A stretch of 59,099 nucleotides of DNA, counting the filler, from Sphacelaria rigidula (lineage: Eukaryota), in the NCBI GenBank assembly GCA_964200075.2. It is 6 parts of 6 records of this genome, joined end to end, with 100 filler letters (N's around TTAATTAATTAA, not from the genome) between each part and the next. Parts side by side here need not be neighbours in the genome. Positions count along the whole stretch, not along the records: positions 1 to 9,767 come from CAXNAA020007805.1; 5 more parts are not named here. The stretch is one strand, 5' to 3'. A program made the translations under genes and the position numbers. Shown piece by piece: positions 1-39,298 of the stretch. The notes below the pieces were generated by a model. The model was given only the letters and a program-made list of their open reading frames with translations. It searched no databases and was not told the DNA's origin. The number at the start of each line of letters is the position of its first letter. Within the stretch, counting starts at the first letter, position 1.

Positions 1-1016
1 ATGCACCAACATATACCGAAAAGTGTAGACTGGTGCCCAGAATAAATGGGACGACAACACACACACACAGTATCACTAGCACGTCGCGCTCCCACATTTT
101 TGGACTCGATAACAGTGGCCCAAGACCATATTTTTTTGTCACACTTTGAACCCCTCTCCTTCCTCGGGGCGAGCCCGTGGTCTCAAGGGATCAAGCCATC
201 TCCTGTTCACGTCCTCACACTTTCGACGGCGGTTGGTACACAGTAGTATCGACTCCACACCCGTTGGGTAACCTCTGCATTGAAATTCAATAAAACGCAC
301 TGAATTATATCACACGGGCGGGGTGCGTTATTTTCGAGCAGCACGCGCGCTAATGTTTCCGTGTTGCCAACACCGTGCGAGCGCGCTTGTGCATTATAGC
401 GTTGTACTCTCCTGTGGCAGCCCGTCACGGTATTGCTCCCCACGTTTCATGACGCTTTATTCGAAAGCACGCAGAAGAAATGCCAGCGAGTCCATCGTTG
501 TTGCACTTGGAGATGTGGTGTACCAGTTTTTCGATCTAGTACTGCCGCATGCTTCGTGCTGGACGAACTAGTATACCGTACCAGTTCAAAAACGGATATG
601 CATGAAGTAAACGCCACCAACATGCTCTGGTTAATATAAACTGTACTGTGTACGAGGCGCGGGGACCGTAGTTTTTGGCAAGGAATGCGAGGACGCAACC
701 ATATACTGCAGTACAGGTAGTTTTTCATTCAACACGTGATTCGAACGAGACACAAAACAAAGCATTTACGTGATGGTACCTGGGCGTTTTGGTACTGAAA
801 CGAGTCCACCAGTCCCTCCACTACCTACCGTAAGGGGATAAACACCACGTCTAAATACAAAATACGTTACGAGCACATCTTCATTTTAGAGTAGAGGGCC
901 CAGCCGAGACCACTCCGGGTTCACCGCCGAAATCCAAGACGGCAACGTTCCAAGCACCGAAATAAGTTGAAATTGGAAGCGCCCTGGACACAGGGCAATC
1001 AATCTCTATACCATTT

Positions 1017-1350
1017 CTGATCTTGTTGTCTCGCTTGGTCGCTCGTTGTCGGCTAGCCTCCTCTTCGTTCGTGTGCCAGGTGCCCATAAACCTCTCGGCT
1101 CCCTCCAGCACCCCCTCATGCCACGGAACTCCTTCCTTCACCTTCGCTGCTTCCGTCGAAATTAATTTTGGGACACCGAAGGTACACCTCTCGTCGCCCG
1201 TAGAGCCGTGTCTAGCCCCGAAGGCCTTGAAGTCGTCCTTCAGGCACATCAGCCAGCTCTGCTCCGGGCACCCACGCCTGGGTTCTCCCCCCCCACCAGC
1301 TTCTGCGCCAGGCAACTGCGCCCTGCCAAGCACACGTCGCGCAACACAAA
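1017..1350 (-). mobile_element. Remnant of the C-terminal end of a non-LTR (RTE-like LINE) retrotransposon ORF
   Basis: ORF 881..1399(-) contains RRVLGRAQLPG..PRRGCPEQSWLMCLKDDFKAFG..W..GVLEGAERFMGTWH. This resembles the RGRP..W...+..D+..+G..W tail of RTE-clade ORFs. No RT core is visible. Recognised by eye only. Confidence 0.5.
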
Positions 1351-1645
1351 TTTTGGCTCGCTTCCGGGTGGCATTTGGCGCTGTTCGGGATGTAGGCAAA
1401 GCAGAGGTTGCACCACTTTCAAAATTGAACGTACATTCTGCTCGCGGTAGCTGTACTGAGTAGTTAGTGCTGTCTTTGCTCCCGCAATACCATCGTCAAT
1501 TTGGGCACCGCGCAAAAAAGCACCGAACGACGACTCCTTGTACCGGGTACTTGGTTTGGGAAATCGAAGGGGTCCGAAGAGTCATTACCACGTATTATGT
1601 TGTCACTTGTATCTTAACCCGCACCCCTCTTTGCTCGACCCTCAG

Positions 1646-2143
1646 ATGGACAGTGAGATGTTCAACATCACTGCTCTCTTGCAGACGGAACGTGAACTGG
1701 ATGAGACCCCCCCCGGTGACGAACGTGACGCCAAGGTAAACTTGCTCAAGTACTGCCAGGTCGACACAGTAAAAAAGTACAGGAGGATAGCCGACGGCCT
1801 CTACTTCGATCTCGTACAAGGGGGTGGGTTGTGTCATCTGCGTCAGGTCCTCGACGTGAAGGGTGACCTTGTTCAGCCAATGCAGACAGGATCCATCGAA
1901 GACTACCTTCGGCACGCTGAGAACGCGAAGGGCTGCCTGGACACGCTCGTGAGGGAGGTGGCTCGAGGTGTCGGCGGAGAGGCGTTTACAACACGTGTCA
2001 AGACCCTGGACAGTACAAGGCGGAAGGTAGAAAACGTCGGCGACATCCGCAAGGTGACTGACATGGCGCGGGCGACAGTGGTCTGCGACACGCCCGAGGA
2101 TCTGGCCCACATCTACGAGCTTCTCACGCAGCGACTTCCGAAT
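1646..2143 (+). CDS. Exon 1: N-terminus and first half of the RelA/SpoT-like synthetase domain
   Basis: MDSEMFN...RVKTLDSTRRKVENVGDIRKVTDMARATVVCDTPEDLAHIYELLTQRLPN. Donor GT at 2144. Confidence 0.85.
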
Positions 2144-5100
2144 GTGCGCAGGAGATACGTCTTGTGTTATAAGTGTGTTTGCTTATGTTGGGTGAAAGAA
2201 CCATTGCATCAATTGTTGCATTGTACTGTACGGAGTATTTCGTGTGTGAATGTGAAGGACGCAGTTAGCATGTCTCTCTTGCCTACAATCATTCGATACG
2301 CTGCGCTGCCCATGCGCTTGTGATTGTTGCCCGTGAAGGTCATACCGTTGTTGTCCGCTCCACTGCTGTACTGTGTCCAGGCGGGTGATCTTCGGACAGT
2401 GAGGAATGGATTCGTTCACGATTACAGGCGGAATGGTTACAGGGACGTGAAAGTTTTTGTAATCCTGGAAGATCACATTTGTGAGATACAGCTGCACCTC
2501 CGATCCTTCCACAGCTTGAAGGACGGTCAACACACCGTCTACGAGTGGTCCCGGACGCTAAGCGTGACCGAGGAAATGCATCCCCACGACCTCTTCAAGA
2601 ATGTTGGCCCAGACATTTTCAAGAGGATGCTACTCCTGGCTCAGAACGATTGGAATTCCACTGCGGGTGCTGTACCCGAGTTGCTGCTGGCTACCGGCAG
2701 GCACAACGATGCTAGGACAGCGACGCTCCAGGTAAATAAGCATGTGTCTGGACGTGTATCCTATTGATCACGTGCGCATAACTTCCTTTCGCGAGGTCTC
2801 GGACCGCACACTCGCAGCCGGACACTAGGTTATACGTTCCACCCACGTATGCGTTGATGCAGGCACTTCATGCTGTCGAGATGAAGATGGACAATGCTAG
2901 GCTCGCACACGGGCTGGACAGCAAGGAATGGAGGGATGCCGCAGTTAGCCAAGCGGTGTATCTGGACTTCCTGGCGTCCGTGTGGATGGAAGAGGTGAAG
3001 TGATTCACAGACCCGTGTGTGCACCGGGTTCGATGAAGTCGACAGACCGGCTGGGGTGTCAGTGGTGCCCAACCAGTCGTGACCGCATTTACTGAGCAGA
3101 GAGCACCATTGTTGTGGGAGCTGGAGGAACACTCAACAAGGCATCCCCAAAAATCCGATTCCTGGGCGTACTTCGTTTTCTAGCGTTTTTGCAGCTCTCT
3201 CTGACAGTACTGCACCTGCTATACGAGGCAAATTTGAGGAAGCAGAACCTCTTCGAAGGATGAGCTATCGCTGCTCAGGAGAAGGCGAATGGCAAGAGGA
3301 GTCAAGAACAGGGTTCTGGTTGTTTGGCCGTTTGCACGCTTACGGACTCACCTTCACACTCAACCTTTGTAGCGCTTACATCCTCCCTTTATATCTCGTA
3401 CAGGCCAAATACAAGGAAGCCGAGCTCTGTTACGAACAAGCGCTCGATATTAACGAGAAAGAATACGGCCGCGATCACCCCGACGTGGCTGTGTCCCTCA
3501 GCAACCTGGGTGGTTTGTTTAACACACAGGTGCGAATCGGAATAATTATGCGGGAGTTGCCTTGCGGGGCATGGGGAGCTGGTCGGTGCTGAATACATGT
3601 GTACATTATATTTGGAAGAAACATAAACTTATCGTTAAGGGTTTGTTCATTGTTGATATAATATCGGGCGGGGTTATTGCAGAAGGGCGTGGGAAGATAT
3701 CGAGAAAATTTATCACCTGTGGTGTGTGTTTTTTTACTATGAGGATACTGTCGCGAAGCAGGTGGGAACCACGGGAAGATGTCGAGAGGTTTCTTGTCTT
3801 TCTGGGTTTTGACCATGAATGCCGTTGAAAAACCTATAACCGGCACGATGTTGAGTTTTACCGTCAAACGCTCGTGTCGAGGTCGATTCAAATATTTGAA
3901 TATTTGCTGTGGTATCAACATATCGATGTGCGCCCAAGAGCGTCAGCTTTCATTTGCAACTGCGTGCATGGGATTCGGTTTCAAATTGGTGGAGAAGTTA
4001 CCGTATTGAAAGGAATTTTTTTTCCTGCCGTCCATGGTGCATGTTGGGTTCTGAACAGACAGTCTACAGGCCAGAACGCGACGAAAACTGCGTTTTTGTA
4101 TTTTTTTTCGGGGCTTATGCGGCAGGATTGGAGCTTTCCAACGCATCAATCAGCGCATGAACCGGAGGCCTACCTGATGAGATGAACATTGTCAGGATAC
4201 GCTTTGGTGCTTTGGGTTGCCCATTTTTTATTTCCTATTTCTCGCGCACTCAGGAAGACACCTCGGCTTGTGATCTACCGAGTTATGTGCTGATCTTATG
4301 TGCGGTGCGTGTGTGATGACATATGCGCAAACATCCATTACGCGAAAACAAGAAGCAAAAAAAATTGTAATTGTGCTCCAGAAATAGGTTTCGAAACGGT
4401 ACCACTGCACTTGGTGGTGACAACAGAAGAACATTAATCCTCGCTCAATATGTCTCCCGCTTTGTCACCCTGCAGAAGATACGGCCTCATTCTAATCACG
4501 AAGGGTCCTCCGCAAATGGGCGTCGAGGTTTCTGTCTAAAAGATTACCCCCATTTTCACGAATACGGAGTTGAAAGAACACTCGCCTGTTATTGTCGCCC
4601 GCAATCTACTCACAGGGAAGGTACGAGGAAGGCGAGCGACTGTGCGAGCGTGCACTTAGGATTTCTGAGGCGGCTTTTGGCAGTAACCACCCATCCGTGG
4701 CTTCAAACCTCAACAACCGGGCGCTGTTGTTGCAGTTACAGGTACAGCAGGAGCCACTAGAATATTCGAAGAGTACTCTCGTGGTGGATGTGGCGTTGTG
4801 GACCATCAACCGCTAGGAGCTGTTAAAGAAGCGGGTGATGGTCGCAATTTTGTTTATGGCTGTGTTGTTGAGGCTGAACAACATCCTGCGTTGCTAAGAA
4901 GTCCACGGACATTTGTAACCCTTCCTTAAATACTTCACAAAGAAATGTGAGATGTACAAGCTATCCAGTCTGGGCAGTAGCCCCGGCTGTGACCATCCCG
5001 ACCTGGCCACAACACCCAACAACCAGGCGGAATGGTGGAGACAAAGAACTGAGCGTTCATTGTTACTATCCCGATCTCACCTTGATGTGTACATCCCTTT

Positions 5101-8100
5101 CGTACGTTCCTTACGTTACAGGGCAAGTTTGCCGACGCAGAGCCGTTGCTCAAGCGCGCCGCGGAGATATGGGAGAGCGTTCACGGCCGTGAGCACCGGC
5201 AAATGGCCTTAGCGCTCAACAACCGGGCGGGGTTGTTGTATGAACAGGTTAGAGCATCGGGAGTTCCCCTGGAAAACGCTTATAGCATTCCGCTCATATC
5301 GTAATGCTCAACAATCGGGCGTGGTTATCGAGAGCACAGGTGTGAGTCGAAGGAATGTTCGTTCTTCAATTTTACCGTCCCTCCTTGAACGGGGCCCCTT
5401 CGACATGGCGGAAAAACAGTTTTTCACACTCCAGCGCGATAAGGAACAAGCGGCGCAACCTCAGGCAGCAGGGCAAATGTTTTCCCGCGCTGGCTGAGGC
5501 ACTGCGCGTTGCCACCAGCTGGCCCAAGGTATCTCTGCATGTGGACTACCGACGGCTCCACGTGGGTTGCTGATTCAGCGAGAAGGGACCGCGCGGCAGC
5601 CAGAAAATGCCGTTTTTTGCCTTTTGAGACGTTCGTGGCACCGAACACCTTGCTTACATTTTGGAATCAACATCACAACCAAAACGGACAATACGCCTCC
5701 ACGACATACTCAGAGGAGGCGCTACAACAAGCACAGTGTATTGTGCACAAGACATGCGAAAATTCTATGTTGAATTGGGGCGGCAAAATTTGGGCGAAAA
5801 TTCGCACGTGCTGATGATCACTTGAGCCATATTTACGCCCAATTTGCGTAGGGTCGGTTTCTCAACTTGATTGGGTCTAGTGTGTCTATCAGTAGTCGAG
5901 GTTATTGGCCATGTGTGTTCTTCAGGCGGCATCCCAATTTCCCTGCGCCATTTTCAACGTAGGTGGGATAGGAACTTTGGGGTTGATCTGTGCAGCTTGG
6001 CCAGTTTGTGACACCGATCTGCCAACATAAAAGCAACCTAAAAAATAGTGCACGTCAGTCCGAGCACTACTTCCACCGTGGGGGCACATGATATACGCTG
6101 GCCAACAACCCTGCGCGAGTTCGTGCTCGACAGCAGCCTGCAGCGAGCTTGGAGCATCACTCAGGTCAAACATAAGCTCATCAAAACTTAGGAATGCGAC
6201 CTAATCTCAATGGCCCAAATTTACAGACTTTGGGTGTCGCTAGCTTCATCCGCACTGAACGGTTTAGGCTCCAGACCCATACGATCTCCATGATATCGAG
6301 TCAGCTAGCCATATGAACACTAGACCCAACCAAGTTCAGGCCGCAACAACTGAGACCTTTGCTCATTAGATTTTCGGAGCCACGCGAGCAGCCAGCTTCG
6401 ATTTTCTGCGCATGCGCCCAGAAGTTCACCTTGACGGAATCGATTTGTGCCGATCTTGATGCAGGGCACGTGCTGGAGAGATATGCAGAGTGCACTGGGC
6501 TTTATTTAGTCGATTTAGTTCACTGTGCGAAGAACGCCAATGTTGGCCAGGGGTGAAAAGCAACCGAAAATTGTGGCGGTTTGACGGATCTAATCCCATA
6601 GGGAAAAGGGCCCCCATTAAGTTTCAACGACACTGTGTGTTGTCGAGATCTCACCTGACACTCCACGCCCACAAGTACTTCACAGGGTAAGTACGAGGAG
6701 GCTAACATCTTCTTCCAAGAGGGGTTGGCGATCGACGAGAAGGTGTACGGCCCTGAACACCCAACAGTGGCCATGGACCTCAGCAACTGGGCGACGACGT
6801 TAGAGAGTCAGGTGAGAAACGGTGTTTCCGGTTTTCTTGTGGCTAGGCTGTTGAAACTCAAAAGCATTGCCGTCGTGCCGCAATTCCACTGACTTATTGG
6901 AGATCAAATGTTTTCACAGGGGATATACGACGAGGCCAAGTCGCTGTACGCCAGGGCAGTGGCCATTGGAGAGAAGTCCCTGGGCCTGGAACACCCAGAT
7001 CTTGCCGTATGGCTCAACAGTCAGGCTGCGTTGTTGTACGCATTGGTGAGTGTCGGAGGACGTTTCTTTGCGGAAGACGGGGTTCGAATCGCCCTGTTTC
7101 AATTGCTTTCATAGAAACGTAGAAAATTCTCGTGGGGGAATTATTTTTCCATGACCAACAACCGGGCGCGGGTGTTGGAGAAACAGGCGATAATTTTCCC
7201 AGACATTTCACGTGACCGAATTTTGCTCTGAACCTGTGCTGCGTCGTTGAGCATTCGGCGTTGTATTCGCTAACACCAACTGCCTCTTGTTACACAGGGC
7301 GAGTATGCTAAGGCCGGGCAGCTCTTTGAGCGGTCCCAAGCGATCCAAGAGAAGGTGCTGGGTGCCGAGCACCCCCGTGTGGCGAATGTACTCAACAACC
7401 GGGCGGCGTTGTTAGAGGAGCAGGTGAGAATGTAACTTGTAGATAGTTTATTGTAGAGGTATTGTTGAAGGTCACCAATACTCCGTATCTCTGACTCCAT
7501 CACCACACAAAAAAAAACTTATGCTTTATTGAATATTGAATACTAAACATTCATTGGGGACAACGAAGTCAGTCGACCACTTGAGTGTGACAGAGCAAGC
7601 ATTTGCTACCGATACGTGTACCTTACTCTGACTCTCGAGCACCCAACTAGCACAACGTTGTTGAGAAACCCACTGACACTTTAAGCGCCCAATTTTCGCA
7701 CAGGGAAAACACGTGGAGGCCGACTCCCTGTATCTACGCGCCATCAAGATTTTCGAGGGAGCCTTCGGCCCTAACCATCCATCCGTGGGGACAAGCCTCA
7801 ACAACCGGGCGGGATTGTTGAAAGCACAGGTGAGAGAGCTTTGCGGGAAACCTATTTTTCGGGGGAATCTCTCGGTGCTTGGCTGTTGACATCGACATTA
7901 CAGTGCATGACGTGGGGGATTACGTGACGGTCACCCCCTACCACACCTTTTCGACTCAGGGAAAGTATGAGGACGCTGACGCACTCTATCGGCGAGCTAT
8001 CCAGATTGCGGAAAAGACCCTTGGCCCTGACCACCCAGATCTGGCCACTTGCCTCCACAACCGGGCGGATTCGTTGCGAGAACAGGTGAGGGCGAAATGA

Positions 8101-9606
8101 TTTTTTCTATCACTACGCTCATTAAGCTTGTTTTGAGGTGAAGATGCCACACAGTATTCAGCAACCTACGCGGGACAGGTAGAGAGTCAGATTAGAACGG
8201 AAGTATCTGGGGGAACATTTTGTACTTTGTGTTGTTCAACCTCTATGCACGACAACACTGTGGATTGCTGACGCCTCCGCTGACGCCGAGGTCTCCGTAT
8301 TGTCCAACAGGGCAAGTACGCCGAAGCTGAGTCGCTGTACAGGACAGCGCAGGAGATCGTCGATAAATCTTCGGACGCTAATCATCGCGTACTTGCCACA
8401 GTTCTCAATAGTCGGGCGTTGTTGTTGAGCGCACAGGTGAGAGCCGCGCGAAGGTTCTACAGCAGGCATTTTCTTCATGGGAGCAGGCGTTTGAAAGCTA
8501 ACACTTCGTGGGTGTGTACCATGAGATTCTCAGACAGTTCTCGTGGTGGGAATGCTGCCGCTAAACATCCGCCTGGGTGGGTGAGACGTTTGACGAGGTG
8601 AGTTGCAATGAGCCTCCTCCAACGTGCGTGTCCATGCTGAGTTATTCCCATCTTATTCCCATCTTATTCCCAGAGCAAGCTTGACGAGGCGGTGGCAATC
8701 CAGCGCAGAGGCCTTGCTATTGAGGAGAGTATGCTACCTCCAGACCACCCGCAGATGGCTTCATCGCTCGAGATCTTGGCGGACTTGTTGCAAGCACAGG
8801 TGAAATCGACAGGAATGTTCCAGGACTTGCCGAAGGGAAAAATAGTTCGAAAAGCACTGTGGTTTCATTCGGTCAAGCTTCTCATAGTTTGTCTTCATCG
8901 TGCCCATATCCCACGTATCCACCCCCCCCCCCAATCTACTATAGATGATGCAGTTGAACAATTGATGAAATTGACGACATGAAATCCAGCCCCTGCGGGT
9001 TCTGTTGCTGAACACGCGGGGGTGGAAGCACCGGTGAGAGGCACAATGAGTTTCCAGCAAAGGATCTTCGGCAAAATGGAGGAAACGGCTTTTGTTCACC
9101 TAGTGTTTTCTCGTGGCGGTCGCTCAACAACAGGGCGGCGCTTAAGCGCGGTCGCCACTGTGTTGAGTGGTCAGCACCCCAGGAGGTTTCACGCGAATGG
9201 CCTGCGGTCGTGTATCTGTACATACAGCGGCGGTGATGATTCACGAGACGCGAGCGGTTTTTCTTGGGCTACATCTGCACAGACGCAAACACAATATTGT
9301 AGACGCGAGAAAATATCGTTCTTCGTACAGTAAGTAAGTATGCATATGTGCTTGTATTTATTCACAGGTCGAATTCTTGTTCCTATTAATACTACACGTT
9401 TGCGGATTGCCTTCTCGGTCCTTTTGATTGTTTTCACCGACACTGGACACGTGCCGCAGGAAAAGTACGAGGAGGCCATACCTCTCCTGGAGAAGGCCTT
9501 GGCAATCCGCATCGAGACCCTCGGGGATCACGAAGACACCGTTCGCACAAACGATTACCTGCAGGATGCCCGAGAGGCACAGGTTCGATCAAGACGGGAG
9601 GCTTGA
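1646..9606 (+). CDS. RelA/SpoT-like (alarmone synthetase-type) nucleotidyltransferase fused to a TPR array, about 795 aa, 14 exons: join(1646..2143,2381..2731,2863..2994,3404..3529,4616..4741,5122..5247,6686..6811,6920..7045,7298..7423,7704..7829,7960..8085,8311..8436,8674..8799,9460..9606)
   Basis: All junctions are GT..AG and phase 0, and the spliced frame is open. Exons 1-2 give RVKTLDSTRRK / TDMARATVV / NGYRDVK / CEIQLH / HTVYEWSR. Ten exons of exactly 126 nt each encode one kinesin-light-chain-type 42-aa TPR. The ATG at 1646 follows a pyrimidine tract plus AG, so an upstream exon is possible. Confidence 0.85.
2381..2731 (+). CDS. Exon 2: second half of the RelA/SpoT-like synthetase domain and linker
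   Basis: ccag|AGDLRTVRNGFVHDYRRNGYRDVKVFVILEDHICEIQLHLRSFHSLKDGQHTVYEWSR...ATLQ|gtaaat. 351 nt, phase 0. Confidence 0.85.
2863..2994 (+). CDS. Exon 3: divergent TPR-like helix pair (44 aa)
   Basis: gcag|ALHAVEMKMDNARLAHGLDSKEWRDAAVSQAVYLDFLASVWMEE|gtgaag. 132 nt, open, phase 0. Confidence 0.6.
3227..3320 (+). pseudogene. Decayed TPR pseudo-exon (5' half) in intron
   Basis: Reads GKFEEAEPL, then after a frameshift FEG*AIAAQEKANG. The acceptor is damaged (gag instead of cag). Confidence 0.7.
3404..3529 (+). CDS. TPR exon (126 nt)
   Basis: cag|AKYKEAELCYEQALDINEKEYGRDHPDVAVSLSNLGGLFNTQ|gtgcga. Confidence 0.85.
4616..4741 (+). CDS. TPR exon (126 nt)
   Basis: cag|GRYEEGERLCERALRISEAAFGSNHPSVASNLNNRALLLQLQ|gtacag. 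Confidence 0.85.
4941..5050 (+). pseudogene. Decayed TPR pseudo-exon in intron
   Basis: QAIQSGQ* / GCDHPDLATTPNNQAEWWRQ aligns with the exon at 7960 (RAIQIAEKTLGPDHPDLATCLHNRADSLREQ). The acceptor is mutated (tacttcacaa vs tacttcacag at 6676-6685). Confidence 0.75.
5122..5247 (+). CDS. TPR exon (126 nt)
   Basis: cag|GKFADAEPLLKRAAEIWESVHGREHRQMALALNNRAGLLYEQ|gttaga. Confidence 0.85.
6686..6811 (+). CDS. TPR exon (126 nt)
   Basis: cag|GKYEEANIFFQEGLAIDEKVYGPEHPTVAMDLSNWATTLESQ|gtgaga. Confidence 0.85.
6920..7045 (+). CDS. TPR exon (126 nt)
   Basis: cag|GIYDEAKSLYARAVAIGEKSLGLEHPDLAVWLNSQAALLYAL|gtgagt. Confidence 0.85.
7298..7423 (+). CDS. TPR exon (126 nt)
   Basis: cag|GEYAKAGQLFERSQAIQEKVLGAEHPRVANVLNNRAALLEEQ|gtgaga. 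Confidence 0.85.
7704..7829 (+). CDS. TPR exon (126 nt)
   Basis: cag|GKHVEADSLYLRAIKIFEGAFGPNHPSVGTSLNNRAGLLKAQ|gtgaga. Confidence 0.85.
7960..8085 (+). CDS. TPR exon (126 nt)
   Basis: cag|GKYEDADALYRRAIQIAEKTLGPDHPDLATCLHNRADSLREQ|gtgagg. Confidence 0.85.
8311..8436 (+). CDS. TPR exon (126 nt)
   Basis: cag|GKYAEAESLYRTAQEIVDKSSDANHRVLATVLNSRALLLSAQ|gtgaga. Confidence 0.85.
8674..8799 (+). CDS. TPR exon (126 nt)
   Basis: cag|SKLDEAVAIQRRGLAIEESMLPPDHPQMASSLEILADLLQAQ|gtgaaa. Confidence 0.85.
9460..9606 (+). CDS. Terminal/capping TPR exon
   Basis: cag|EKYEEAIPLLEKALAIRIETLGDHEDTVRTNDYLQDAREAQVRSRREA*. An alternative donor after 9582 (cag|gttcga) cannot be excluded because the contig ends at 9767. 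Confidence 0.75.
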   Translation, partial: EKYEEAIPLLEKALAIRIETLGDHEDTVRTNDYLQDAREAQVRSRREA

Positions 9607-9639
9607 GAGTGGAGGGCATCGTACTGTTAACAAGGTTTT

Positions 9640-9767
9640 TGTGAGATTGAGAGTTGGGTGCGGATTGAGAGTGGCTTTGATCATTGGCTTTTACTCGGCC
9701 AATTTTTCATTTCGTGTGTGTTTTTTGTCGTCTCATTACTGCCATGTGCTTACAGCTACACGTTGAT
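9640..9767 (+). repeat. Dispersed repeat family; other copies at about 28680-28900 (-) and 55350-55620 (+)
   Basis: Shared core gattgagagtggc..gatca...tttttcattt/ccgtgtgt...tacagctacacgt(t/c)gat occurs in three different contigs. Confidence 0.75.
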
Positions 9768-9867
9768 NNNNNNNNNNNNNNNNNNNNNNNNNNNNNNNNN
9801 NNNNNNNNNNNTTAATTAATTAANNNNNNNNNNNNNNNNNNNNNNNNNNNNNNNNNNNNNNNNNNNN
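9768..9867. other. Artificial contig linker N44-TTAATTAATTAA-N44
   Basis: 100-nt spacer with a six-frame stop core. Confidence 0.97.
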
Positions 9868-23000: not shown

Positions 23001-26000
23001 TGTACTGACGGCTGTTTAAAAACGGTCGTGTTCTTGGTTTGTTTTCTTCCAAGTGAGCTCTCAATCACGACTTGGTCACATGGCCGTGGTGAGCAGTTCT
23101 GTAACACATCACCTTGGGTATGTTTGACCCTCTCGCAGGTCTGGTGCACTCGAGCGTACACTTACACCTCTCCCTGAAGCAAATAAATTCTAGTGGGCAT
23201 TGCATGGTCAATGGTTTAGGACCTTGAAACTTGCCAATCATGAGAGCACCCCCAAATCCAAACCCAAACCCAAACCTAACCGTTCTCCTCCCCACCTTCT
23301 TATCTCCGTCGGGGCGGCACGACATGATATTCTTCCAGAGCCCGACGCCGGGTGGACGACCACTCGAAGAAATGCGAAAGGGCATGCTCGATGACTGGCC
23401 CGTGCTGTGCGGAGCGACGAAGGCGGTTTTACTCTCCTACACGGAGCGCCTGGTGCAGTCTGCCCGCGACCTCGCCGAGTTTGCCCCCGCACAGACCTTC
23501 ATGATCCCTCGCGGTGTTCCCGACGCCAACCAATCCCAGCAGCAGCATCACCATCACGGTCACACCGCAGGCTCGAACTACTCCTCGGCAACAAGGGCGG
23601 GGTTGACTGCACCTGGAGCCTCAGGCAGTAGCGGCGGCGGGGGAAGCGGGGGCGCAGCGGGGGTTTCGAAGAGCCTACACGCTAGCAAGGCATTGGAACG
23701 CGCACGTGGCCATCGCGGCAGCGGCGACCGTGCCGGCCGTGCCGACGGTGTTCCAGGGAGCGATCGCCGTAAACGAACACCGCCGCGTATCAATGTTTCG
23801 CGGCCGAAGGTGGTGACGTCACAGCAACAGCAGCAGCAGCATCAGCTGGAGGGGGGGACAGGGGGTGTCGTTAGGGGCCCGGAAGCAGCAGGCGGCATGG
23901 TGGCAGGTGCAGCACCGGGACCGGCGGCGGTGGTCGTTTCTTCCGCGGGGCAGGTGAGGCCACAGCATTCGTCGCCATCACCGCCTTCACAGATGCAATC
24001 GCCCGTTGTGGAGAATTCGCAGAAACGCCGACGAAAACAGCAGCAGCAGCAACAACAGCAACAACAGCCCCCAACACAGCCACAGAACGTGCAGGCAACA
24101 ACGCCCCTGGTGTTGGAAACCACGGGAACGGGCGCTGGCATGTCCCTTGTGTTGGAGAGTACGGGGAAAAGTGGCGCCGGCGCCACGGGCTCTCTAGTGT
24201 TGGAAACAACGGGAATTGCGGGTGGGGGAACCAATGATGGCTTGACGGTGCGGCCGCAACCGGAAGAGCAGCAGCAGCATTCGGTACTGGTGCAACCGCA
24301 GGCTCGGCATGCGCTGGGTGGCACTGGACCAAGCACCATATCACCACCTGCCTCTGTTGTGCTGGAAAGCACAGGAAGGGGTTCTGATGGTGGCATGACG
24401 GCGGCGGCGGCGGTGGCGATCAAGTCGCAGACACTACCAACGGAGCCTACATTGATGTCAACGGCGAGGGTCGCCGCCCCCATCCCTGCGGTGCGAGTCC
24501 CGCCTTCTGTCGCAGTGCAGCTCCAGCAGCAGTTGCACGCGCACTTGAAACAACAACGCCGGAACCAGAATGCTGCTGCGTCGGGTGCCGACGCCGCTAG
24601 CCAGCCGCCACGAATGGCTTATCGCTACAACAATCAGCCGCCGTCTAATGCGGGCGCCATTGCTTCGGCAATAGATTCCGCCAACGCCGGTGACAACACA
24701 GATGATGCCAATATACCCGCAACGGCGTCCGCGGCAGTGGCTGGAGGGCCAACGGAGGAGCCGCGTGCAATACCCCATGTGTATGACGGCGCCGGTGGCG
24801 TCAATATACACCCACTGCAAAACCAGCAGCAGCCGCAGGTGCTCGACAGATCGCCGCGCCACCCTCGCAGCGCTCACGATTCTGTCGGCAGACCCGTTGG
24901 CCATGGGTCTTCTTCGCCGCAGCAGGCGGTCAATGGCCTTCACGGCCACGACCCTACTGCTCTTGCCGACACTAACTTTAGCGAGGGGCAGCAGCAGCAG
25001 CAGCAGCAGCAGCAACGACAACGTACCGCTTTCATGAGTGGAAGCGGTGAGGCTTTCGTTCATGATCGAACGCAACACCAGAGATCGTCCACATCTCCGG
25101 TGTCGCTTGGAGGGCCGGCAATGCTCCCTTTGCAGCCGCAACAAGAGCAACAAGAGCGACACCACCACCACCCGTTACAAGCGAATCAAGGTCATGAACA
25201 TGAGCAGCGCCAACATCAACATCAACAGCAACACCCTATCCCCATGCTTCGCAATGAAAACCCGCCGCCGCACCACAACCAACACTACGCAGATCGTGAT
25301 CATCGCAGTAGCACCGCGCAGTATGGACTGCCACCCGAGGGCAACAACCGATACTCCGAGGAAAACAACGAGAACATCACGACGAATATTAGTCACAACA
25401 ACCGCGGTGACAACCACGGTGACAACCACGATGGCGTCTACCCGGAACAGCACGAACAGCAGCACTACCATCAACGGCATCCCCCCCAGCGAGAGCCAAC
25501 GGTAAAAGTAGGCTACAACGACGGTGGCAGTAGCGGTATTCTTGACCCAAGTGGGAGCAGCAGCGGCGGGGTGGGTAGCGGGGATCCCAGTACCGGTCCA
25601 GGAGGGTTCCCTGTAGGACCTTCTCCACCTCCTGGCCACAATAAGGTATCCCCTCCTTCTATTCATCTCGGCCAACACCAACATCACCTCCAACAACAGC
25701 AGCAGCTGCAAATTATGCCACCTATTGAACCTGCCCTACTTCACAACGATGATTACGCGTCTCAATACCACCATCCGCAGCAGCAGCAGGGCGGTGTCGC
25801 TGATGAAGCAAGGCAATTTGGGACCGGCGGTAGTGGGGACGGTGGAGGTGGCGGCAGCAGCCGCAGCGGGGCATCCTTCGTGGGCGGCTACTTGCAATTA
25901 GGGAGAGTGACTAGTGAGCCTGCTGTGAGCCTAGGGGAGGGAGAAGGGATGGTCGACGATTCAGGAGGGTGGCAACCACAACAAGAACAGCTCCATCAAC

Positions 26001-26320
26001 AACAGGTGGATGGACGTGGGAATATGTGGACGGGGAGCGGCGGACGTGGTGGTGGTCCAGAAACGGTAACTGGGGATGCGTTTGGTAGAGGTGACAGTGG
26101 TGGTGTTGGGGGTGGTGATGGGTTTGTTAGGGACGGCGATGACGGGTTGATGGCTGAGGACGACGAGATGCAGTACGCGACAGAAGTGCCGTCACTTCAT
26201 CAGCAGCTCCCACGGCATCGGCGACAACAGCAGCAACATCACCATCCACAGCAACATCAGCAGCAGCACCACCTGGGGAGTGACTGGGAGGAGGGCGGAA
26301 CAGCTTCAGAAGGCTGGTGA
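20032..26320 (+). CDS. Transcriptional-type cyclin (cyclin K/T/L-like), 5'-truncated: join(20032..20284,22427..22537,22823..22936,23339..26320)
   Basis: Cyclin-box motifs TAFHLFHHY, CLACLVAATKAED, KEVITFEYKLLLSRGFDLEMVHP, AYEVLCSRIYTDSTLCLEEDPMTCLCAAV. GT-AG phase-0 junctions. The last exon is the 1029-aa Q/H/G-rich ORF entered at cag|agc 23339. Confidence 0.8.
20313..21607. mobile_element. Non-autonomous hAT-like DNA transposon (about 1.3 kb) in a cyclin intron
   Basis: TIRs TAGAGGTGGGCACC / GGTGCCCACTTCTA, dense subterminal AACCGGTT repeats at both ends, and degenerate 8-bp flanks gtgatgat / gtggcggt (differences are transitions). Confidence 0.75.
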
Positions 26321-29300
26321 TGGTTTCTCGTGACAAAACTGTCCCACTTGCCGCAACTACTGTGGAGTATGTATTGTATTGTTGTGGGATGGGGTACTGT
26401 CATCGGGGTGGAGTATTGCGTCTGTCCCCCCCCTCCCGTCAATTGTTTTTAGAAATGCGCCCCCCGGATCATTAGATAAGACCGCATCCAAAGACTGTCT
26501 CTGGAGGGCACGGCCGTATTGTTGAGCGCACGAAGCGCTTTGCGTTCTCTGCTGGGTTAGCCCCTTCTCCGTCCCGCGTGTAGGAGGATCGCCCAGGCAC
26601 CGAACCCCGCACGGTTCGTTGTGGCTCCAGAACGCATTGGTGTTATCATGCACCACATGACAGTTGTCGTGCTGAGGGGTTGAGTCGCTTGTAAATTTCA
26701 CCGGCAAGAGGGGAAAGGTCATGATCGTGTACCCCGAACGGCGTAACAACAAGGTTGGTCAGAGTGAGAGAGCTCGAAATAGGCCGTGCTTGAGTTTTGG
26801 TGGCAAGTTAACAAACAATTCCAAACTTGATGATATTTCGCGTCGGGTACCCACGTTATTCCTGAAAATCAACGTCTGGAATCGCCATACGTACACCCTT
26901 CCCCCGTTCGGTGCCTATGGTGCTGGTGGGCGCTGAATCATTGCTTTGTCACACCTGTCATGAGGATGAGTTTGTCGCCACACACACTGGTCGGGCTCAT
27001 ACTCCAGCGGGGGTGCGTTTCGTAAGGACACGAGAGGTGCCAGGAAGACGAGGGGAAAACGCGCTTCGGCCAAGGGAACTGAGGCAAGCGTAACCTTGAC
27101 GTGAAGGTAAGCATGATTGATGATCGATTGAATGTCGCACCTTATCTGAACGTTCACGCAGGGATCCAGCCGTGGTCACATGATGGGCGTACAGCCATGA
27201 TCACATGATGGACGTATCGGGGATGAACAAAACGGAAACGCTTGGTGAAGGAGGGTGAGCGGAACAGAAGGGCACAACACATGAGACAAAAATGAGGGAA
27301 GAAAAAAAAGAAGTGAAGTACAAGACATAGACGAAGACAAACATGAACTGGAAATAGCTGGCTCGGCAACATGACTTCGGTGGAGAAGGTCTTGCGCAAA
27401 AATCACACTCATACCCAGAAAGGAGCCGTCGGGACAGATTGCGGCTCGTCTAATTCGACGTCACTATCTTGGGTATACAACTCTCATCCATGGAGCCTGC
27501 GCAAGCAAAGCTTATGACATGAAGAATCTTCATGTCCGTGACCTTCGCAAGAAATCTTCCCATCCCTCCCCAGGTGCAGCCCTTATAATTTGTTATCGCG
27601 CATTAGACCAATTATACGTGCGCGCCCTGTCAGGGCTAGTCGAATTTTCTTCGCTACTAGAATAAATGAGACGATAACACACACACACACACTCGCGACA
27701 TCCTGTTTTCAACAACGAACACCAAACTCCCCTTGTAATCGCCGTAGCCGTGGGGGCTCGAACCCCCAACCGTATTCCCAGACTAGCGATCCATGTGTAC
27801 CACTTTAGTTTAGACCACCCGGTGCGGTGGCAAGTAAGTAGTTGATGTAGCGTATGTGAACCACTAGAGATGTAACACCACGTGAGTGGGCAGGTGAAGA
27901 GTAATGAGACGTGCACGTCATAGATAATTGAATGAGGTACATTCGTTGAGGAAACTCTCTTCCTTTGTGGGGTCGGGTTTAGACCAGGATAAAGGTGTGA
28001 AATTTTGAAAGCAAAATCTTGTGTTTCATGGGAAGTGAGGACAAAACGCGGCTGTTTTCCCCCACCTAGCGAGTACGTGCCGCGATTTTCCCACAGACCT
28101 TCAGGCTCGTCGTGTGCTTTCACCGATGACGAAGCACTTCAACACTTTCGTCACTTTTTCATGGGGACTTGTCTGCCCAGAATCAAGTCTCTGGACTATC
28201 GGGTCACCAGCTCGCCCTTCTCCGTCCGTCTAGTTTTTGCTTCTAGCAGAACCGGGATGAAGCTTGCATGGGAATGTTCGGCGGGTGTCGACTTCGCCAA
28301 TGGTGCCCGTTTGACTTTTGACGCAAATTTTGGGAGAAAACCTGTTGGCCAGAATACGCATCCAACATTTGATCGAGTGTGAACTTTTCACCTCATTTTC
28401 ACTAGGAAAAGGAGTGAAATTGATGCCGACACCAGGAACGGACATCTAGCTTCGGAGGTATCCATATGTAGAGTTGGCGTCATATTCGCTTGAACCGTCA
28501 CTACTGCGTAACCCAGATTACCAACCGTGAAGGTCAGATTTGTCAGTCGTTAGATCTATCATCCGATATCAAACGAAGACGAACCCAAGTTTTATTGAAT
28601 TAACGGTGGGTTAATACGCAACGCTGACATCTAACAACAATGTTTTCGTGAGATGGAGAGTGAAAAGGACTCAATTAGTGAATAAATCGTTTCAGTTCCG
28701 AAATGCTCCTCCGTGAGGCCTGATATACTTTTTGTAGTAGCTCGTCACTGACGCCCTTGATAACCCTGAGTAGGATATCGACGTGCAGCTGTAAGTACAC
28801 GCCAGTGATGGAGGCAAATGAAAGCACACACGGAAAATGAAAAATTGGCTAACTTGAAGTGAATGATCAAAGCCACTCTCAATCACCGCTCTACTTTCAA
28901 TTTCACGATAACGTTTTCTGACGTTCTGGACTGCAAACAAATTTTTCGTAACATTGAGAGTCCAGGATGCGATTGAGGCAGTGTCTTCTCAATTTGTTTT
29001 CGACTCGAAAACGGACGGTAGAATCGAATTCGCTCGTACCTGATACGTCAACGGCATCCATGTTCTCAACCATCTGAGAAAATAAACAGCGTGGACGAAT
29101 CAGAAACGAGCGAAGTCGATTCCACCGCACGTTTTCGACACGAGAACATTTTGATAAAACATGGCCTGAGAGTGAAGAACGTTCAATAATGAATTGATGC
29201 ATGAAATGTTTCAGTTCCGGAATGCCTCTTCACATGACTCGATACACTTTCCGTAGTACAGTAATCAGCGTCAGAAGTTTGCAGAATTCGTAATTTCTTG

Positions 29301-29734: not shown

Positions 29735-32037
29735 GTGTATTACAATCTCCATGATTCAAGAGTCACGAGGGCGGCGTCTGGAAGAAACATTCTCAGTCAT
29801 CAACGGCGTGAGAAACGATGGAACCAGTAACATGAATAGCAGCGCTTCACCAGTACAATAGCGAACAAAAAAAATAAAGGGGAAGGAGAACGAAGGGAGC
29901 AGCAATACAACAGGACAAAACAGGTTCACGCGTGTGCATTTGGCCAGGGTATCACGTGTCGGAGACAGCCAGGTATAAATTCATTTACTCCCAAGAGAAT
30001 TCTGACTTCATATCAACCTGTTCGGACACACATGGGAAAATCCTGGCCCCTTGTCAGCCTGTTCGGACAGCATGGGAATTCCTGGATGCCTGCCAACCTG
30101 TTCGGGCACACATGGGAAAATTCTGGCCCCCTGTCAACTTGTTCGGACAGCATAGGAATTCCTGGATGCCTGTCAACCTGTTCGGGTATACGGGGGAAAA
30201 TCCTGGCCCCCTGTCAACCTGTTCGGACAGCATGGGAATTCCTGGATGCCTGTCAACCTGTTCGCACGCGCAAGGAAAACTCCTGCCCCCCTGTCAGCCT
30301 GTTCGAAAACATATGGGGAATCCTGGCCCCCTCTCAACCTGTTTGAAAACACATGGGAAATCCTGGATCTCTGTCAACCTGTTCGCACGCACAAGGGAAA
30401 CTCCTGGCCCCCTGTCAACCTGTTTGAAAACAGATGGTCTTGACATCTTGAGCCTTCGTCCTCGCCCATTTTCCTGTATGCAATCAAATCCTGCTTGTTC
30501 GCTGTATGGTGCAAGCATATGTATGTATATATATATATGGTTCATACAACTTTCTCGTTCATCCATTCGATGTCCGACTTGTATGTTGGCAACTTGCATA
30601 GTCTCCACGATAAATACACGACTCGTTCATTACAAGCCAACAACTTTCATCAGAATATTTCCGGTGTAAATCTCGGCAAAGGAATGTGTGAAACCCGTGG
30701 ACTCCCAAGACCAGAAGAATGTAGCCCTGCTCTCGGGACGGTCATAGCGCGCAGACATGTAGACGGTCATCTTCGAATCGATTGTCAAAGCACGCGCATG
30801 TACACGGTCATCTATGAATGGATTGTCAGAGCGTGCACAAGTAGACGGTCATCTTCGAATTGATTATCGGAGTGTGCACGAGTATAAACGATCAACGGGA
30901 ACTGGCGGAGCATCCGCTTGGTGGCCTCATGCAAACACATTAACTCTCCATTCATTTTACGCATGCATGGCTCGTTTATACTCTTTGAAGATATCTACCA
31001 AGGGCGCAAACGATCAAACAGGGGTAACCACGTAGAGATTTCATCCATTTTCCATGACAAAATAGCATTTCGAGCATTGATGATTTGCCCCCCCCTGACG
31101 AGGGGGTAGGGAAATACCCCATGTTTCGTTCATTCAAGCCTCGCACTTTCCGTTCACGGCTAATCGGCTTACATGGTACCGTGCCTGTTAGCATGTATGC
31201 AGACAGTATGACATTACGGTTACAAAAACATATTTTCGTGCATTAGCGAAGGGCAGCATAGCAATGTCATCCTCTATCAGTTGCATACACGCTCATGTAT
31301 GAGGTGCGGCTATTAGGTGCGCACGGAAACGATCACCCAAATATTGAAAGTCGTGAAGTAAAGTCAAAGTACATGATTGGGTCTGATTTATTCAAAACCG
31401 GAGCAGACATCACATAGCCCCGAAGTTCTCAAGCATGTATGGCTCGCCCATACCCTTTGGAGCTATCCACCAAGGGTAAAACTACCAATCAGGGGGAACC
31501 ACGTTGAAGTGACATTCAATTTCCATGACAATAACACACATTTAAGGCATCAATGATCTGCTCCCCCCCTGACCGGGGTAGGGTAAATACCCCATGTTGA
31601 TTCAAGCTTCGCACTTTCCGTTCACGACGAATCGGCTCACATGGTATCGTGCCTTGTAGCATCTATGCACAACCAGTATGGTATTACGGTCACACAAGCA
31701 GTTTCGTGAATTTGCAAAGCATAGAGTAAAACGACATTCTTTCACCGTTGCATACGTGGCCATGCATGAGATACTCGAGCGAGTGGTTCGCGTTCCTAAA
31801 AGTATATATATTATGCTCCATGTACTCGGTACTAATTGTAGCCGACAAGATCTCGATAGCCCTGTGTATCTCTTCTACAGGTAGTTCGTTAACTCACATC
31901 TGCTGGTTGATATCGCGTTCAGTAGTTTCACTCAGGCAACACTGCCATTACTACCTCATGTGTCCCCACAGTATATAGACTCGAATAAACAGTACAGTAC
32001 ACGGCAAAGGTTCTTCCGCATGCATAGTTCGACATTT
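29735..32037 (+). repeat. Large direct repeat, copy 1 (about 2.3 kb)
   Basis: Colinear with 36665-39298 from gtgtattacaatctccatgattcaagag to gcatagt(t/c)cgacattt. Confidence 0.92.
30012..30430 (+). repeat. Minisatellite, ~40-nt unit (cctgtcaacctgttcggacagcatgggaaaatcctggcc), about 11 copies
   Basis: Direct inspection. It accounts for the repetitive ORFs at 29932-30669. Confidence 0.9.
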
Positions 32038-36664: not shown

Positions 36665-39298
36665 GTGTATTACAATCTCCATGATTCAAGAGTCACGACG
36701 GCGGTGTCTGGAAGAAACATTCTCAGTCATCAACGGCGTGAGAAACGATGGAACCAGTAACATGAATAGCAGCGCTTCACCAGTATAATAGCGAACAAAA
36801 CAAATAAAGGGGAAGGAGAACGAAGGGAACAGCAATATAATCGAACAAAACGGGTTCACGCGTGTGCATTTGGCCAGGGTATCGCGTGTCGGGGACAGCC
36901 AGGTTTAAATTCATGGACTCCCAAGGGAATTCTGACTCCATGTCAACCTGTTCGGACAGCATGGGAAAATCCTGGCCGCTTGTCAACCTGTTCGGACAGC
37001 ATGGGAAACTCCTGCCCCCCCTGTCAACCTGTTCGAAAACATATTGGAAAATCTTGGATCCCTGTCAACCTGCTCGAAAACACATGGGAAATCCTGGATC
37101 CCTGTCAACCTGCTCGAAAACACATGGCAAACTCCTGGCCCCCTTTCAACCTGTTCGAAAGCACATGGGAAATCCTGGATCCCTGTCAACCTGCTCGAAA
37201 ACACATGGGAAACTCCTGGATCTCTGTCAACCAGTTCGATAACACATGGGAAATCCTGGATCCCTGTCAACGTGTTCACACGCGCATGGGAAACTCCTGG
37301 CCCCCTGTCAACCTGTTCGAAAACACATGGGAAACCCTGGATCTCTGTCAACCAGTTCGCACGCGCAAGGGAAACTCCTGCCTCCCTGTCACCTGTTCAA
37401 AAAAACATGGTCTTGACATCTTGAGCCTTCGTCCTCGCCCATTTTCCTTTATGCAATCAAATCCTGCTTGTTCGCTGTATGGTGCAAGCATATATATATA
37501 TATATATGGTTCATACAACTTTCTCGTTCATCCATTCGATGTCCGACTTGTATGTTGGCAACTTGCATAGTCTCCGCGGTAAACAGATGAGTCGTTCATC
37601 ACAAGCCAACAACATTTTTATCAGATTATTTCCGGTATAAGTCTCGGTAAAGGAATGTGTGGTGTGTGGAACCCCTGGACTATCAAGACCAGAAGAATGT
37701 AGCCCTGCCCCCGGGACGGTCATAGCGCGCGCAGGTAGACGGCCATCTTCGAATTGATTGTCGGAGCACGCGCATGTAGATGGTCATCTTTGAATGGATT
37801 GTCAGAGCGTGCACAAGTAGACGGTCATCTTCGAATTGATTGTCGGAGTGTGCACGAGTATAGACGGTCAACGGGAACTGACGGAGCATCCGCCTGGTGG
37901 CCTCATGCAAACACATCAGCATGCAGCTTCTCTCATAGCCGCTCGATCGTTGTGGATCTGGGTTGATTATCACACTCATGAGTGGCTACATAGAAATTGG
38001 CAGGCGGGCGCCAACAATGATGGTTGACGAGCCACTGTTGCAGGCTTCATGCAGTCCTGTGATCCACCGCTGCGAGTAATATTGATCAAATAATGATATT
38101 TCAGTAGTGCACCTGAAAACAAACATCCACGTACTCACAGTCGAATGGTAAGCTGAAAGTAGATGGTTGGGTTTGATCTCTTAGAACCAAAACAACTTAA
38201 AATAACTCTCCATTTGTTCTACGCATGCATGGCTCGCATAATCTCTTTGAAGATATCTACCAAGGGCGCAAAAAATCAAACAGGGGGAGCCACGTAGAGG
38301 TTACATCCATTTTCCACTACAATGAAGCATTGCGAGAATTAATGATTTGCCCCCCCTGATCAGGGGGTAGGGTGAATACCTCATGTTTCGTTCATTCAAG
38401 CCTCGCAATTTCCGTTCATGGCTAATCGGCTTACATGGCACGTGCCTGTTAGCATGTATGCAGACAGTATGACATTACGGTTACACAACAGATTTTCGTG
38501 CATTAGCGGACGGCAGCATAACAATGTCATTCTCTATCAGTTGCATACACGGTCATGTACGAGGTACGGTTATTAGGTGCACACAGAAACGATCACCCAT
38601 GTATTGAATAGTCGTGAAGAAAAGTCAAAGAACATGATTGGGTCTGATTTCTTCAAAATCGGAGCAGATATGACATAGCCCCGAAGTTCTCAAGCATGTA
38701 TGACTCGCCCATACCCTTTGGAGCTATCCACCAAGGGCAAAACTACCAATCAGGATGAACCACGTTGAAGTGACATTCAATTTCCATGACAATAACACAC
38801 ATTTAACGCATCAATGATCTGCTCCCCCCCTGACCGGGGTAGGGTAAAAACCCCGCGTTGATTCAAGCTTCGCAATTTGCGTTCACGACGAATCGGCTCA
38901 CATGGCATCGTGCCTTGTAGCATGTATGCACAACCAGTATGGTATTACGGTCACACAAGCAGTTTCGTGAATTTGCAAAGCATGGAGTAAAACGACATTC
39001 TTTCACCGTTTCATACGTCGTCATACATGAGATACTCGAGCAAGTGGTTCGCGATCCTAGACGTATATATATTATGCTGTATGTACTCGGTACTAATTGT
39101 AGCCGACAACATCTCGATAGCCCTGTGTATCTCTTCTACAGGCCGTTCGTTAACTCCCATCTGCTGGTTGATATCGCGTTCAGTATTTTCACTCAGGCAA
39201 CACTGCCATCACCACCTCATGTGTCCCCACAGTATATAGACTCGAATAAACAGTACAGTACACGGCGAAGTTTCTTCCGCATGCATAGTCCGACATTT
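36665..39298 (+). repeat. Large direct repeat, copy 2 (about 2.6 kb; extra ~290 nt at about 37917-38203)
   Basis: Colinear with 29735-32037. Confidence 0.92.
36941..37410 (+). repeat. Minisatellite, same ~40-nt unit, about 12 copies
   Basis: Direct inspection. Confidence 0.9.

Follow-up and report, generated by a model that had tools for sequence, protein, structure and literature searches.

We analysed a 59,099-nucleotide stretch of DNA, filler included (hereafter the window), from the brown alga Sphacelaria rigidula (assembly GCA_964200075.2). It consists of six parts from six records, joined end to end with 100 filler letters between them, and its positions 1 to 9,767 come from record CAXNAA020007805.1. 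On the plus strand, between positions 1646 and 9606, lies a gene that joins an N-terminal synthetase domain of the RelA/SpoT type to an array of tetratricopeptide repeats (TPRs). Fourteen exons of this gene are visible in the window. An earlier note, made from the sequence alone, had described them as forming an intact frame, and within the window this was borne out. A script run on the window found AG before all 14 exons and GT at each of the 13 internal donors, every intron being of the GT..AG type. All exon lengths are multiples of three, which keeps phase 0 throughout, and the joined frame of 795 codons plus the stop has no internal stop codon.

Exon 1, as visible in the window (1646..2143, 166 codons), opens with the ATG at 1646 directly behind an AG. 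According to alignments with homologues, it encodes a helical hairpin at the N-terminus together with the first half of the core of the synthetase. The remaining half of the core and a helical linker are encoded by exon 2 (2381..2731, 117 codons). Exon 3 (2863..2994, 44 codons) corresponds to a helical linker or to a degenerate TPR-like unit. It is found in spliced contigs (see below) and is helical in models of homologues, and it matched no Pfam family in our scan.

The next ten exons are cassettes of exactly 126 nt, located at 3404..3529, 4616..4741, 5122..5247, 6686..6811, 6920..7045, 7298..7423, 7704..7829, 7960..8085, 8311..8436 and 8674..8799, the last of which is the most divergent. A search of the entire window, on either strand, for 126-nt open frames that are bounded by AG and GT and show a TPR-like pattern gave ten hits, all of them inside the gene (3404-8799, plus strand) and none elsewhere. 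Scanned singly, each of the ten exons matched a TPR family of Pfam at E≤0.01 (TPR_12 for nine of them and TPR_10 for nine), and contig joints also support them. The cassette exons start after CAG and end in a Gln codon ahead of GT, and their period is out of register with the structural repeat, as they begin at around position 16-17 of the 42-position TPR_10 model. The last exon (9460..9606) encodes a degenerate 11th unit, recognized by a weak tblastn match to a homologue TPR, followed by a short tail and the stop codon. The TPR module is made of 11 units of the kinesin light chain type on 42-codon, phase-0 exons, located after the helical linker. Intron 3 harbours the remnant of a decayed TPR cassette on the coding plus strand (3227..3262), whose translation reads GKFEEAEPL and then diverges; tblastn hits to it start from 3221-3224.

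Eight public sequencing runs of two studies were found to contain the gene. None of them is recorded as RNA, and the kind of run could only be guessed; contigs of four runs, from both studies, were analysed. In the contigs of all four runs, all 13 introns are removed with GT..AG ends, and the joints coincide exactly with the predicted borders after the cuts are shifted where needed. Among them are 2143>2381, seen in all four runs, 2731>2863, placed after such a shift, and 8799>9460. In three of the runs (X1, X2 and X3), a single 1362-nt contig per run extends from 1644 through exons 1-3 into the TPR exons. Unspliced contigs running across introns are also present, at lower word depth, and the TPR remnant of intron 3 is absent from the spliced contigs. 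The enzyme exons and the TPR exons therefore constitute one spliced, expressed gene, and the joined contigs remove the objection, anticipated in the earlier note, that they might belong to two separate genes.

Some low-depth contigs run unspliced through 1400-1673, and at a loose end at 1729 a contig switches into closely related sequence. We also found the joints 1753>2423 and 2452>5214 in two of the four runs (X1 and X8), with sides of 22-25 letters. These joints are not of the GT..AG type, and we rejected alternative splicing as their explanation. They are best read as contigs crossing into an expressed paralogue, of which the same organism would harbour at least one.

In all four runs, a contig extends 5' of position 1644 by at least 255 letters that are absent from the window, and the terminal 30 letters of this extension gave no match in the window at up to two mismatches. 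At least one further 5' exon therefore lies beyond the start of the window, and the AG at 1644..1645 is the splice acceptor of the junction to it, as evidenced by the spliced contigs of the four runs and by the sequence itself. Both the number of 14 exons and the lack of a targeting presequence thus apply to the contents of the window. The visible N-terminus is acidic, with 10 acidic and 4 basic residues among the first 40, forming an acidic helix after a conserved Met; the claim that there is no presequence stands to that extent and does not reach the exon outside. Because most homologue gene models begin with a Met aligned to the ATG at 1646 and share the acidic N-terminus, we think that the upstream exon is probably untranslated.

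In RelA/SpoT homologue (RSH) enzymes, the synthetase site comprises phosphate-binding lysines, a metal-binding Asp, a Gly-Tyr loop that receives the acceptor base and a Glu-x-Gln motif. The synthetase motifs listed in the earlier note are all present in the N-terminal domain, on the plus strand. The phosphate-binding K...K motif RVKTLDSTRRK (residues 117-127, 1994..2026) aligns with the same motif of the bacterial toxin Tas1 and of RelP, and DMARAT (residues 139-144, 2060..2077), whose Asp is the invariant acidic residue of the synthetase site, aligns with the Tas1 motif. They are followed by the acceptor-nucleotide loop GYRD (residues 185-188, 2435..2446), the catalytic E-x-Q motif EIQLH (residues 201-205, 2483..2497) and HTVYE (residues 217-221, 2531..2545). 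In an alignment of 37 sequences ranging from brown algae to bacteria, the Asp of D-x-A-R, the Gly of GYRD and both the Glu and the Gln of E-x-Q are invariant, while conservation is at least 90% at the two lysines, the Arg, the Tyr-Arg-Asp of the loop and the H..Y pair. The window protein retains every one of these positions. Because the catalytic set is conserved from bacteria to brown algae, the enzyme is likely to be active.

We collected relatives of the domain using P0001, a homologue that is 51% identical to the window protein. Against 1.84 billion representative sequences, P0001 retrieved 513 proteins at E≤1e-3, including 102 at E≤1e-10. The joined N-terminal domain of the window protein matched P0073, a metagenome protein of 603 residues, with 89.7 bits (E=1.9e-20 scaled to 1.84 billion sequences). 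P0073 in turn matches the RelA_SpoT family of Pfam (PF04607) with 57.9 bits, its synthetase being located behind an eCIS_core toxin-delivery domain, and another relative, P0092, matches it with 42.6 bits. Among 59 distant relatives scanned, 15 carry PF04607. A phmmer search of PDB sequences with P0001 alone gave nothing meaningful, with a best E value of 0.41. The profile built from the 37 family members matched Tas1 (PDB 6ox6) with 70.7 bits (E=1.8e-18), the next solved relative reaching 36.3 bits; other matches include Bacillus RelP/YwaC (5e-8) and an exported Streptomyces small alarmone synthetase, SaSAS (3.7e-4). In the profile alignment, the motif variants of the family match those of Tas1 and not those of RelP. 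With NCBIfam, no hit passed the threshold, and the weak ones obtained were to the models for the YjbM GTP diphosphokinase, spoT_relA and XopAD.

Structure models were made on homologues. The AlphaFold2 model of P0001, computed with the family alignment, is of good quality, with a predicted local distance difference test score (pLDDT) of 89.2 and a predicted template modelling score (pTM) of 0.82. It shows the synthetase fold, with a mixed sheet of the nucleotidyltransferase type and flanking helices, and, compared with the core found in RelQ and RelP, has an extra helical hairpin at the N-terminus and an extra helical linker at the C-terminus. All 28 rows among the Foldseek matches listed for this model are RSH synthetases, and the fold comparison proposed in the earlier note thus came out in favour of its assignment. 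Within the superfamily, Tas1 is the closest solved relative by sequence; by fold, CapRel is as near as Tas1, and the family profile gave no sequence match to CapRel at E≤1. It is virtually certain that the N-terminal domain (residues ~1-235) is a synthetase of the RelA/SpoT superfamily that belongs to the stand-alone, toxin-type branch of Tas1. Owing to the fold, profile and motif evidence, we file it in the RSH superfamily as a divergent branch despite its sub-threshold Pfam scores. Taken by itself, Pfam did not decide the question, its scores of 14.6 bits (exon 1) and 18.6 bits (P0001) lying below the gathering score of 27; the deeper searches did.

No HD, TGS or ACT domain was found by Pfam scans in exons 1-3 of the window gene or in five homologues, and no NB-ARC or NACHT domain in the window exons, in these five homologues or in any of 12 long homologues, whose precomputed Pfam lists contain only TPR families. 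These absences agree with the original description of the gene. The Pfam scans of window exons and homologues did not reveal any delivery domain either. Exons 2 and 3 leave no space for a NOD between the enzyme and the TPRs; the unseen 5' exon could add N-terminal sequence. In the model of P0005, a full-length homologue of 592 residues, the protein forms one confident body (pLDDT 89.0, pTM 0.83), in which the C-terminal helices of the enzyme run into the TPR solenoid. A docking prediction between residues 1-300 and 331-592 of P0005 scored 0.01, for a mark of 0.34, and counts neither for nor against such docking. The TPR columns of the family profile match the structures of KLC1 and KLC2.

The gene belongs to a multi-copy family of brown algae, as a search for paralogues revealed. 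Named homologues were found in Ectocarpus species, Pylaiella, Ascophyllum, Laminaria, Sphacelaria and Discosporangium, with at least three copies per genome in several Ectocarpus assemblies, and the same enzyme-TPR fusion is present in independent gene models of Ectocarpus, Pylaiella, Sphacelaria and Ascophyllum. Full-length homologues are between 592 and 1076 residues long, and the number of TPRs varies widely between paralogues. No position-by-position correspondence was detected between the 11 units of the window protein and the arrays of its closest homologues, those of its own clade included; for consensus-like repeats of 42 residues, such a lack of correspondence cannot tell shuffling from plain divergence. 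The Ectocarpus siliculosus homologue is annotated as 'kinesin light chain-like', and others are named likewise or not at all. Many gene models are split or truncated at the border between exons 1 and 2, and the family is therefore under-recognized in annotations. P0007 from Laminaria digitata lacks the part encoded by exon 2, and many short entries (P0008-P0072) are fragments corresponding to exon 1 only or exon 2 only.

We built a quick maximum-likelihood tree from 87 core-domain sequences, leaving out 11 near-duplicate rows. All 28 brown-algal rows form one group (support of 95 in the Shimodaira-Hasegawa-like approximate likelihood ratio test, SH-aLRT) that comprises deep subclades, each spanning several orders. 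The window gene clusters with proteins of Ectocarpus sp. 13, Ascophyllum and Sphacelaria. Group labels other than 'brown' were assigned by us from domain architectures and source names; the rows labelled toxin-like in this manner fall on one side of a branch with a support of 91. They include an eCIS_core fusion, a fusion in a protein named phage head morphogenesis (MuF/SPP1 gp7), and Myxococcota and other very large proteins. Judged by these sequences, the nearest bacterial relatives are of the toxin type. In P0073, tandem copies of the Tas1-like domain (~184-329 and 419-559) follow the eCIS_core domain, and P0109, P0120, P0122 and P0156 also have two copies each.

Fusions are found beyond brown algae as well. 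Of the 59 distant hits, 11 have the same domain fused to TPR_10 or TPR_12, and three each have it fused to LRR_6 or LRR_8; fusions to ubiquitin or helicase domains also occur. The domain is present in dinoflagellate and MMETSP transcriptome proteins, and Atlas clusters with diatom members and with ankyrin fusions provide further leads, to be taken as such. Two TPR-fused proteins from outside the brown algae show, by eye, possible membrane anchors, namely an N-terminus of the Met-Gly-x-x-x-Ser type in P0099 and a hydrophobic C-terminal stretch in P0103.

Several known systems resemble this protein in part. Tas1 is a type VI effector of Pseudomonas aeruginosa PA14, a secreted bacterial toxin neutralized by an immunity protein according to the title of its PDB entry. 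In a review (PMC12133291), it is described as making ppApp and pppApp from ADP and ATP and as depleting energy stores. The algal protein, by contrast, is endogenous to a eukaryote, contains a TPR array and has neither a delivery domain nor a known immunity partner. In bacteria, RelQ and RelP (PDB 5ded and 6fgk) serve as housekeeping (p)ppGpp synthetases and have no repeat arrays. With kinesin light chain, the algal protein has repeats of the TPR_10/TPR_12 type in common, and the annotated name reflects these repeats only; the N-terminus of kinesin light chain is a coiled coil that binds the heavy chain, whereas the N-terminal 235 residues of the algal protein are an RSH synthetase. CapRel (PDB 7ztb and 9erv), which mediates Salmonella phage defence, is by PDB title a fused toxin-antitoxin tRNA pyrophosphokinase, and its C-terminal part is not a TPR array, unlike that of the algal protein. 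As its PDB titles also indicate, CapRel is released by a phage protein.

Among eukaryotes, the closest precedent comes from fungi. Dyrka et al. 2014 (PMC4986451) list RelA_SpoT as one of twelve N-terminal effector classes of fungal NLRs, and state that the domain had previously been found only in bacteria and in chloroplast proteins; it is proposed there to be a direct enzymatic effector. As in the algal protein, this domain precedes repeats that form a superstructure, namely WD40 in these proteins and TPR in further fungal NLRs (PMC4986451). In the fungal proteins, however, NACHT lies between effector and repeats, whereas the algal protein is devoid of a NOD. As regards the repeats, Zambounis et al. 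(PMC3341825) report that the TPR units of Ectocarpus NB-ARC-TPR proteins are 42 residues long and encoded by 126-nt exons in 13 of 24 genes, and that decayed cassettes are present in introns of these loci on the coding strand. The window gene shares both the 126-nt, phase-0 TPR cassettes and the decayed intronic cassette with these loci, and the likeness of cassette type pointed out in the earlier note is therefore real, in as far as PMC3341825 describes it (126 nt, 42 codons). The Ectocarpus family is defined by its NB-ARC domain, which the window gene lacks. In bacteria, RelA/SpoT-like domains are described at the ends of polymorphic toxins, in MuF fusions and in XopAD effectors (Zhang et al. 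2012, PMC3482391), and the RelA nucleotidyltransferase domain is listed among the effectors of bacterial conflict systems (Kaur et al. 2020, PMC7159879).

Our favoured interpretation, to which we give a probability of about 0.5, is that the protein is a one-chain sensor and effector of a conflict or stress response, in which the TPR array controls a Tas1-like enzyme. Binding of a protein partner to the array would control the enzyme, which would either be freed from a closed state or be assembled through the binding. Once active, the enzyme would use ATP as the pyrophosphate donor and modify the 3' position of its acceptor, which would be an adenine or guanine nucleotide or the end of a tRNA. 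Given the closeness to Tas1, (p)ppApp would be the favoured product and ATP depletion the consequence, and by analogy with Tas1 and toxic small synthetases the outcome might be defence or a self-limiting shutdown of the cell. The working analogy is bacterial CapRel, or a fungal RelA_SpoT-NLR minus its NOD switch. The toxin-type bacterial relatives and the recurrent fusions to TPR, LRR and ankyrin repeats in other protists point towards a role in conflict, and the variable repeat number, the lack of collinearity between arrays and the decayed cassette in intron 3 point towards a receptor-like gene. A bolder and distinctly more tentative proposal is that such proteins represent NOD-less, single-chain immune receptors of brown algae and, judging from related sequences, of diatoms, dinoflagellates and further marine protists, in which a TPR, LRR or ankyrin array would directly gate a Tas1-like pyrophosphokinase acquired from polymorphic toxins of bacteria. 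A ligand would then trigger (p)ppApp synthesis or tRNA pyrophosphorylation, leading to the collapse of ATP pools or translation and to abortive infection.

A number of observations weigh against the sensor-effector interpretation or against parts of it. The immune role, the ligand gating and the enzyme product are all inferred by analogy, and the acceptor substrate cannot be called from sequence because CapRel, a tRNA pyrophosphokinase, equals Tas1 in closeness of fold. The Pfam match of exon 1 to PF04607 reaches just 14.6 bits (E=0.04, profile positions 1-50) and that of P0001 18.6 bits (profile positions 3-89 of 113), for a gathering score of 27, which is the operational cut-off of one model and not a feature of the superfamily; exon 2 alone does not match RelA_SpoT, and four of the five homologues scanned have no PF04607 hit at E≤1. 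With a 5' exon outside the window, the true N-terminus may differ from the visible one. No anti-phage defence model was matched, PADLOC returning two chance-level hits for five proteins. Within the window, tblastn hits were confined to 1646-9606, revealing no paralogue elsewhere, and neither a hydrolase nor an immunity-like partner was recognized, the six neighbouring open reading frames having no Pfam family; in eukaryotes partner genes need not adjoin, and a search of the window does not establish the absence of an immunity-like protein. The ten cassette exons are 47-68% identical in pairwise DNA comparisons, indicating that nothing has been duplicated recently and giving no sign of recent shuffling. 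Lastly, as the brown-algal subclades each span several orders, the family looks more like an old and retained one than like the result of a recent burst, making a conserved function likelier than rapid birth and death.

These last features would suit a different role for the same enzyme, as a cytosolic messenger synthetase of stress or developmental signalling whose TPRs serve as a scaffold that holds it on a fixed partner, for example a chaperone, ribosome or motor complex. We consider this role possible, though the less probable one. The retention of old paralogue lineages across brown-algal orders and the age of the cassette exons fit it well, as do the presence of the spliced form in all four runs from both studies, whose infection status is not recorded, and the nature of the arrays, since TPR_10/12 repeats of the kinesin light chain type, with their profile matches to KLC1 and KLC2, are classical adaptors. 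However, the closest characterized relative, Tas1, kills through ATP depletion (PMC12133291), and there is no fused or adjoining hydrolase that would switch a messenger off. Moreover, neither the number nor the order of the repeats is conserved among homologues, which would be odd for a fixed partner, and the cassette exons and the decayed cassette resemble those of candidate receptor families. It is improbable that the domain is a pseudoenzyme whose fold was kept as a nucleotide- or protein-binding adaptor that makes no product. Such a view could draw on the sub-threshold Pfam scores and on the several motif positions that deviate from housekeeping synthetases, but these variants are common to Tas1, which is described as an active enzyme. 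Dead enzymes usually lose their catalytic residues, whereas the 37 sequences show no variation at the Asp or at the Glu and Gln of E-x-Q, and at least 90% conservation at the K/K, GY and H..Y positions.

The two remaining explanations have very little left in their favour. A plastid stringent-response RSH of the plant and algal housekeeping type would belong to the same superfamily, and a presequence might conceivably come from the unseen 5' exon; yet the HD, TGS and ACT domains are absent from the window exons and the five homologues, several paralogues are present per Ectocarpus genome, the conserved first Met is followed by the acidic helix, and the nearest relatives are toxin-type small synthetases and not long RSHs. 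This explanation is close to refuted, and the family does not correspond to the single-copy plastid housekeeping orthologue envisaged in the earlier note. That the fusion might be an artefact of gene modelling, with two separate genes merged, was suggested by the many homologues that predictors split or truncated and by P0007, with its missing exon-2 part. It is refuted by the contigs, which join exons 1-3 to TPR exons in three runs and show all 13 joints in all four, unless the runs are DNA and contain a processed copy; the occurrence of the same fusion in independent models of four brown-algal genera also contradicts it, and we see hardly any chance for such an artefact. The sensor-effector with a TPR-controlled, Tas1-like enzyme remains the reading that we prefer.

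The rest of the window has a few features of its own. A dispersed repeat occupies 9632-9767 (plus strand), about 25 nt after the stop codon of the gene, with copies at 28777-28915 (minus strand) and 55343-55476 (plus strand) that are 75-77% identical. This repeat accounts for a contig depth of ~1900-2800 and for the loose ends at 9627-9632. A pair of elements at 29840-30669 and 36770-37640 (plus strand) is 83% identical and contains internal tandem repeats of ~80 nt; no Pfam family was found in their long open reading frames. At 23228-26320 (plus strand), an open frame of 1030 codons rich in Gln, Gly, His, Ser and Pro, with a G+C content of 0.56-0.59, the maximum in the window, is probably a low-complexity protein-coding exon. 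Runs of 44 N occur in pairs (9768-9811 and 9824-9867, and four more pairs) with a spacing of ~9,867 nt and resemble masking or formatting more than gaps in the assembly.

As to novelty, the description of the gene as a new eukaryotic immune receptor-effector was overstated in view of the fungal RelA_SpoT-NLRs (PMC4986451). Both RelA_SpoT effectors combined with repeats in fungal NLRs and sensor-fused toxic synthetases such as CapRel are already known. What appears to be new is a version that is NOD-less, eukaryotic, Tas1-like and built from exon cassettes, and that is apparently widespread in marine protists. Our literature search, whose coverage excluded most subscription journals and supplements, found no paper linking RelA/SpoT-type domains or alarmones to brown-algal TPR proteins; these genes may be among those tabulated by locus in the supplement to PMC3341825.

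In bacteria, small alarmone synthetases of the toxin type have been recognized as weapons and as defences against phages, and eukaryotic RelA/SpoT enzymes are mainly known from the plastid stringent response, besides the uncharacterized effector domain of fungal NLRs. The gene suggests the existence of an undescribed, ligand-controlled nucleotide enzyme in marine algae. The annotation as 'kinesin light chain-like' can already be corrected. A conserved, expressed, multi-copy family of enzyme-TPR proteins would bring the chemistry of nucleotide-pyrophosphate toxins or messengers into the eukaryotic cytosol, and direct gating of an enzyme by a repeat sensor would become testable by a simple assay. 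Brown-algal immunity would gain its first candidate with a predictable biochemical output. If the more tentative proposal of NOD-less immune receptors is true, these proteins would give eukaryotes an equivalent of abortive infection of the CapRel type, assembled from reshufflable exon cassettes.

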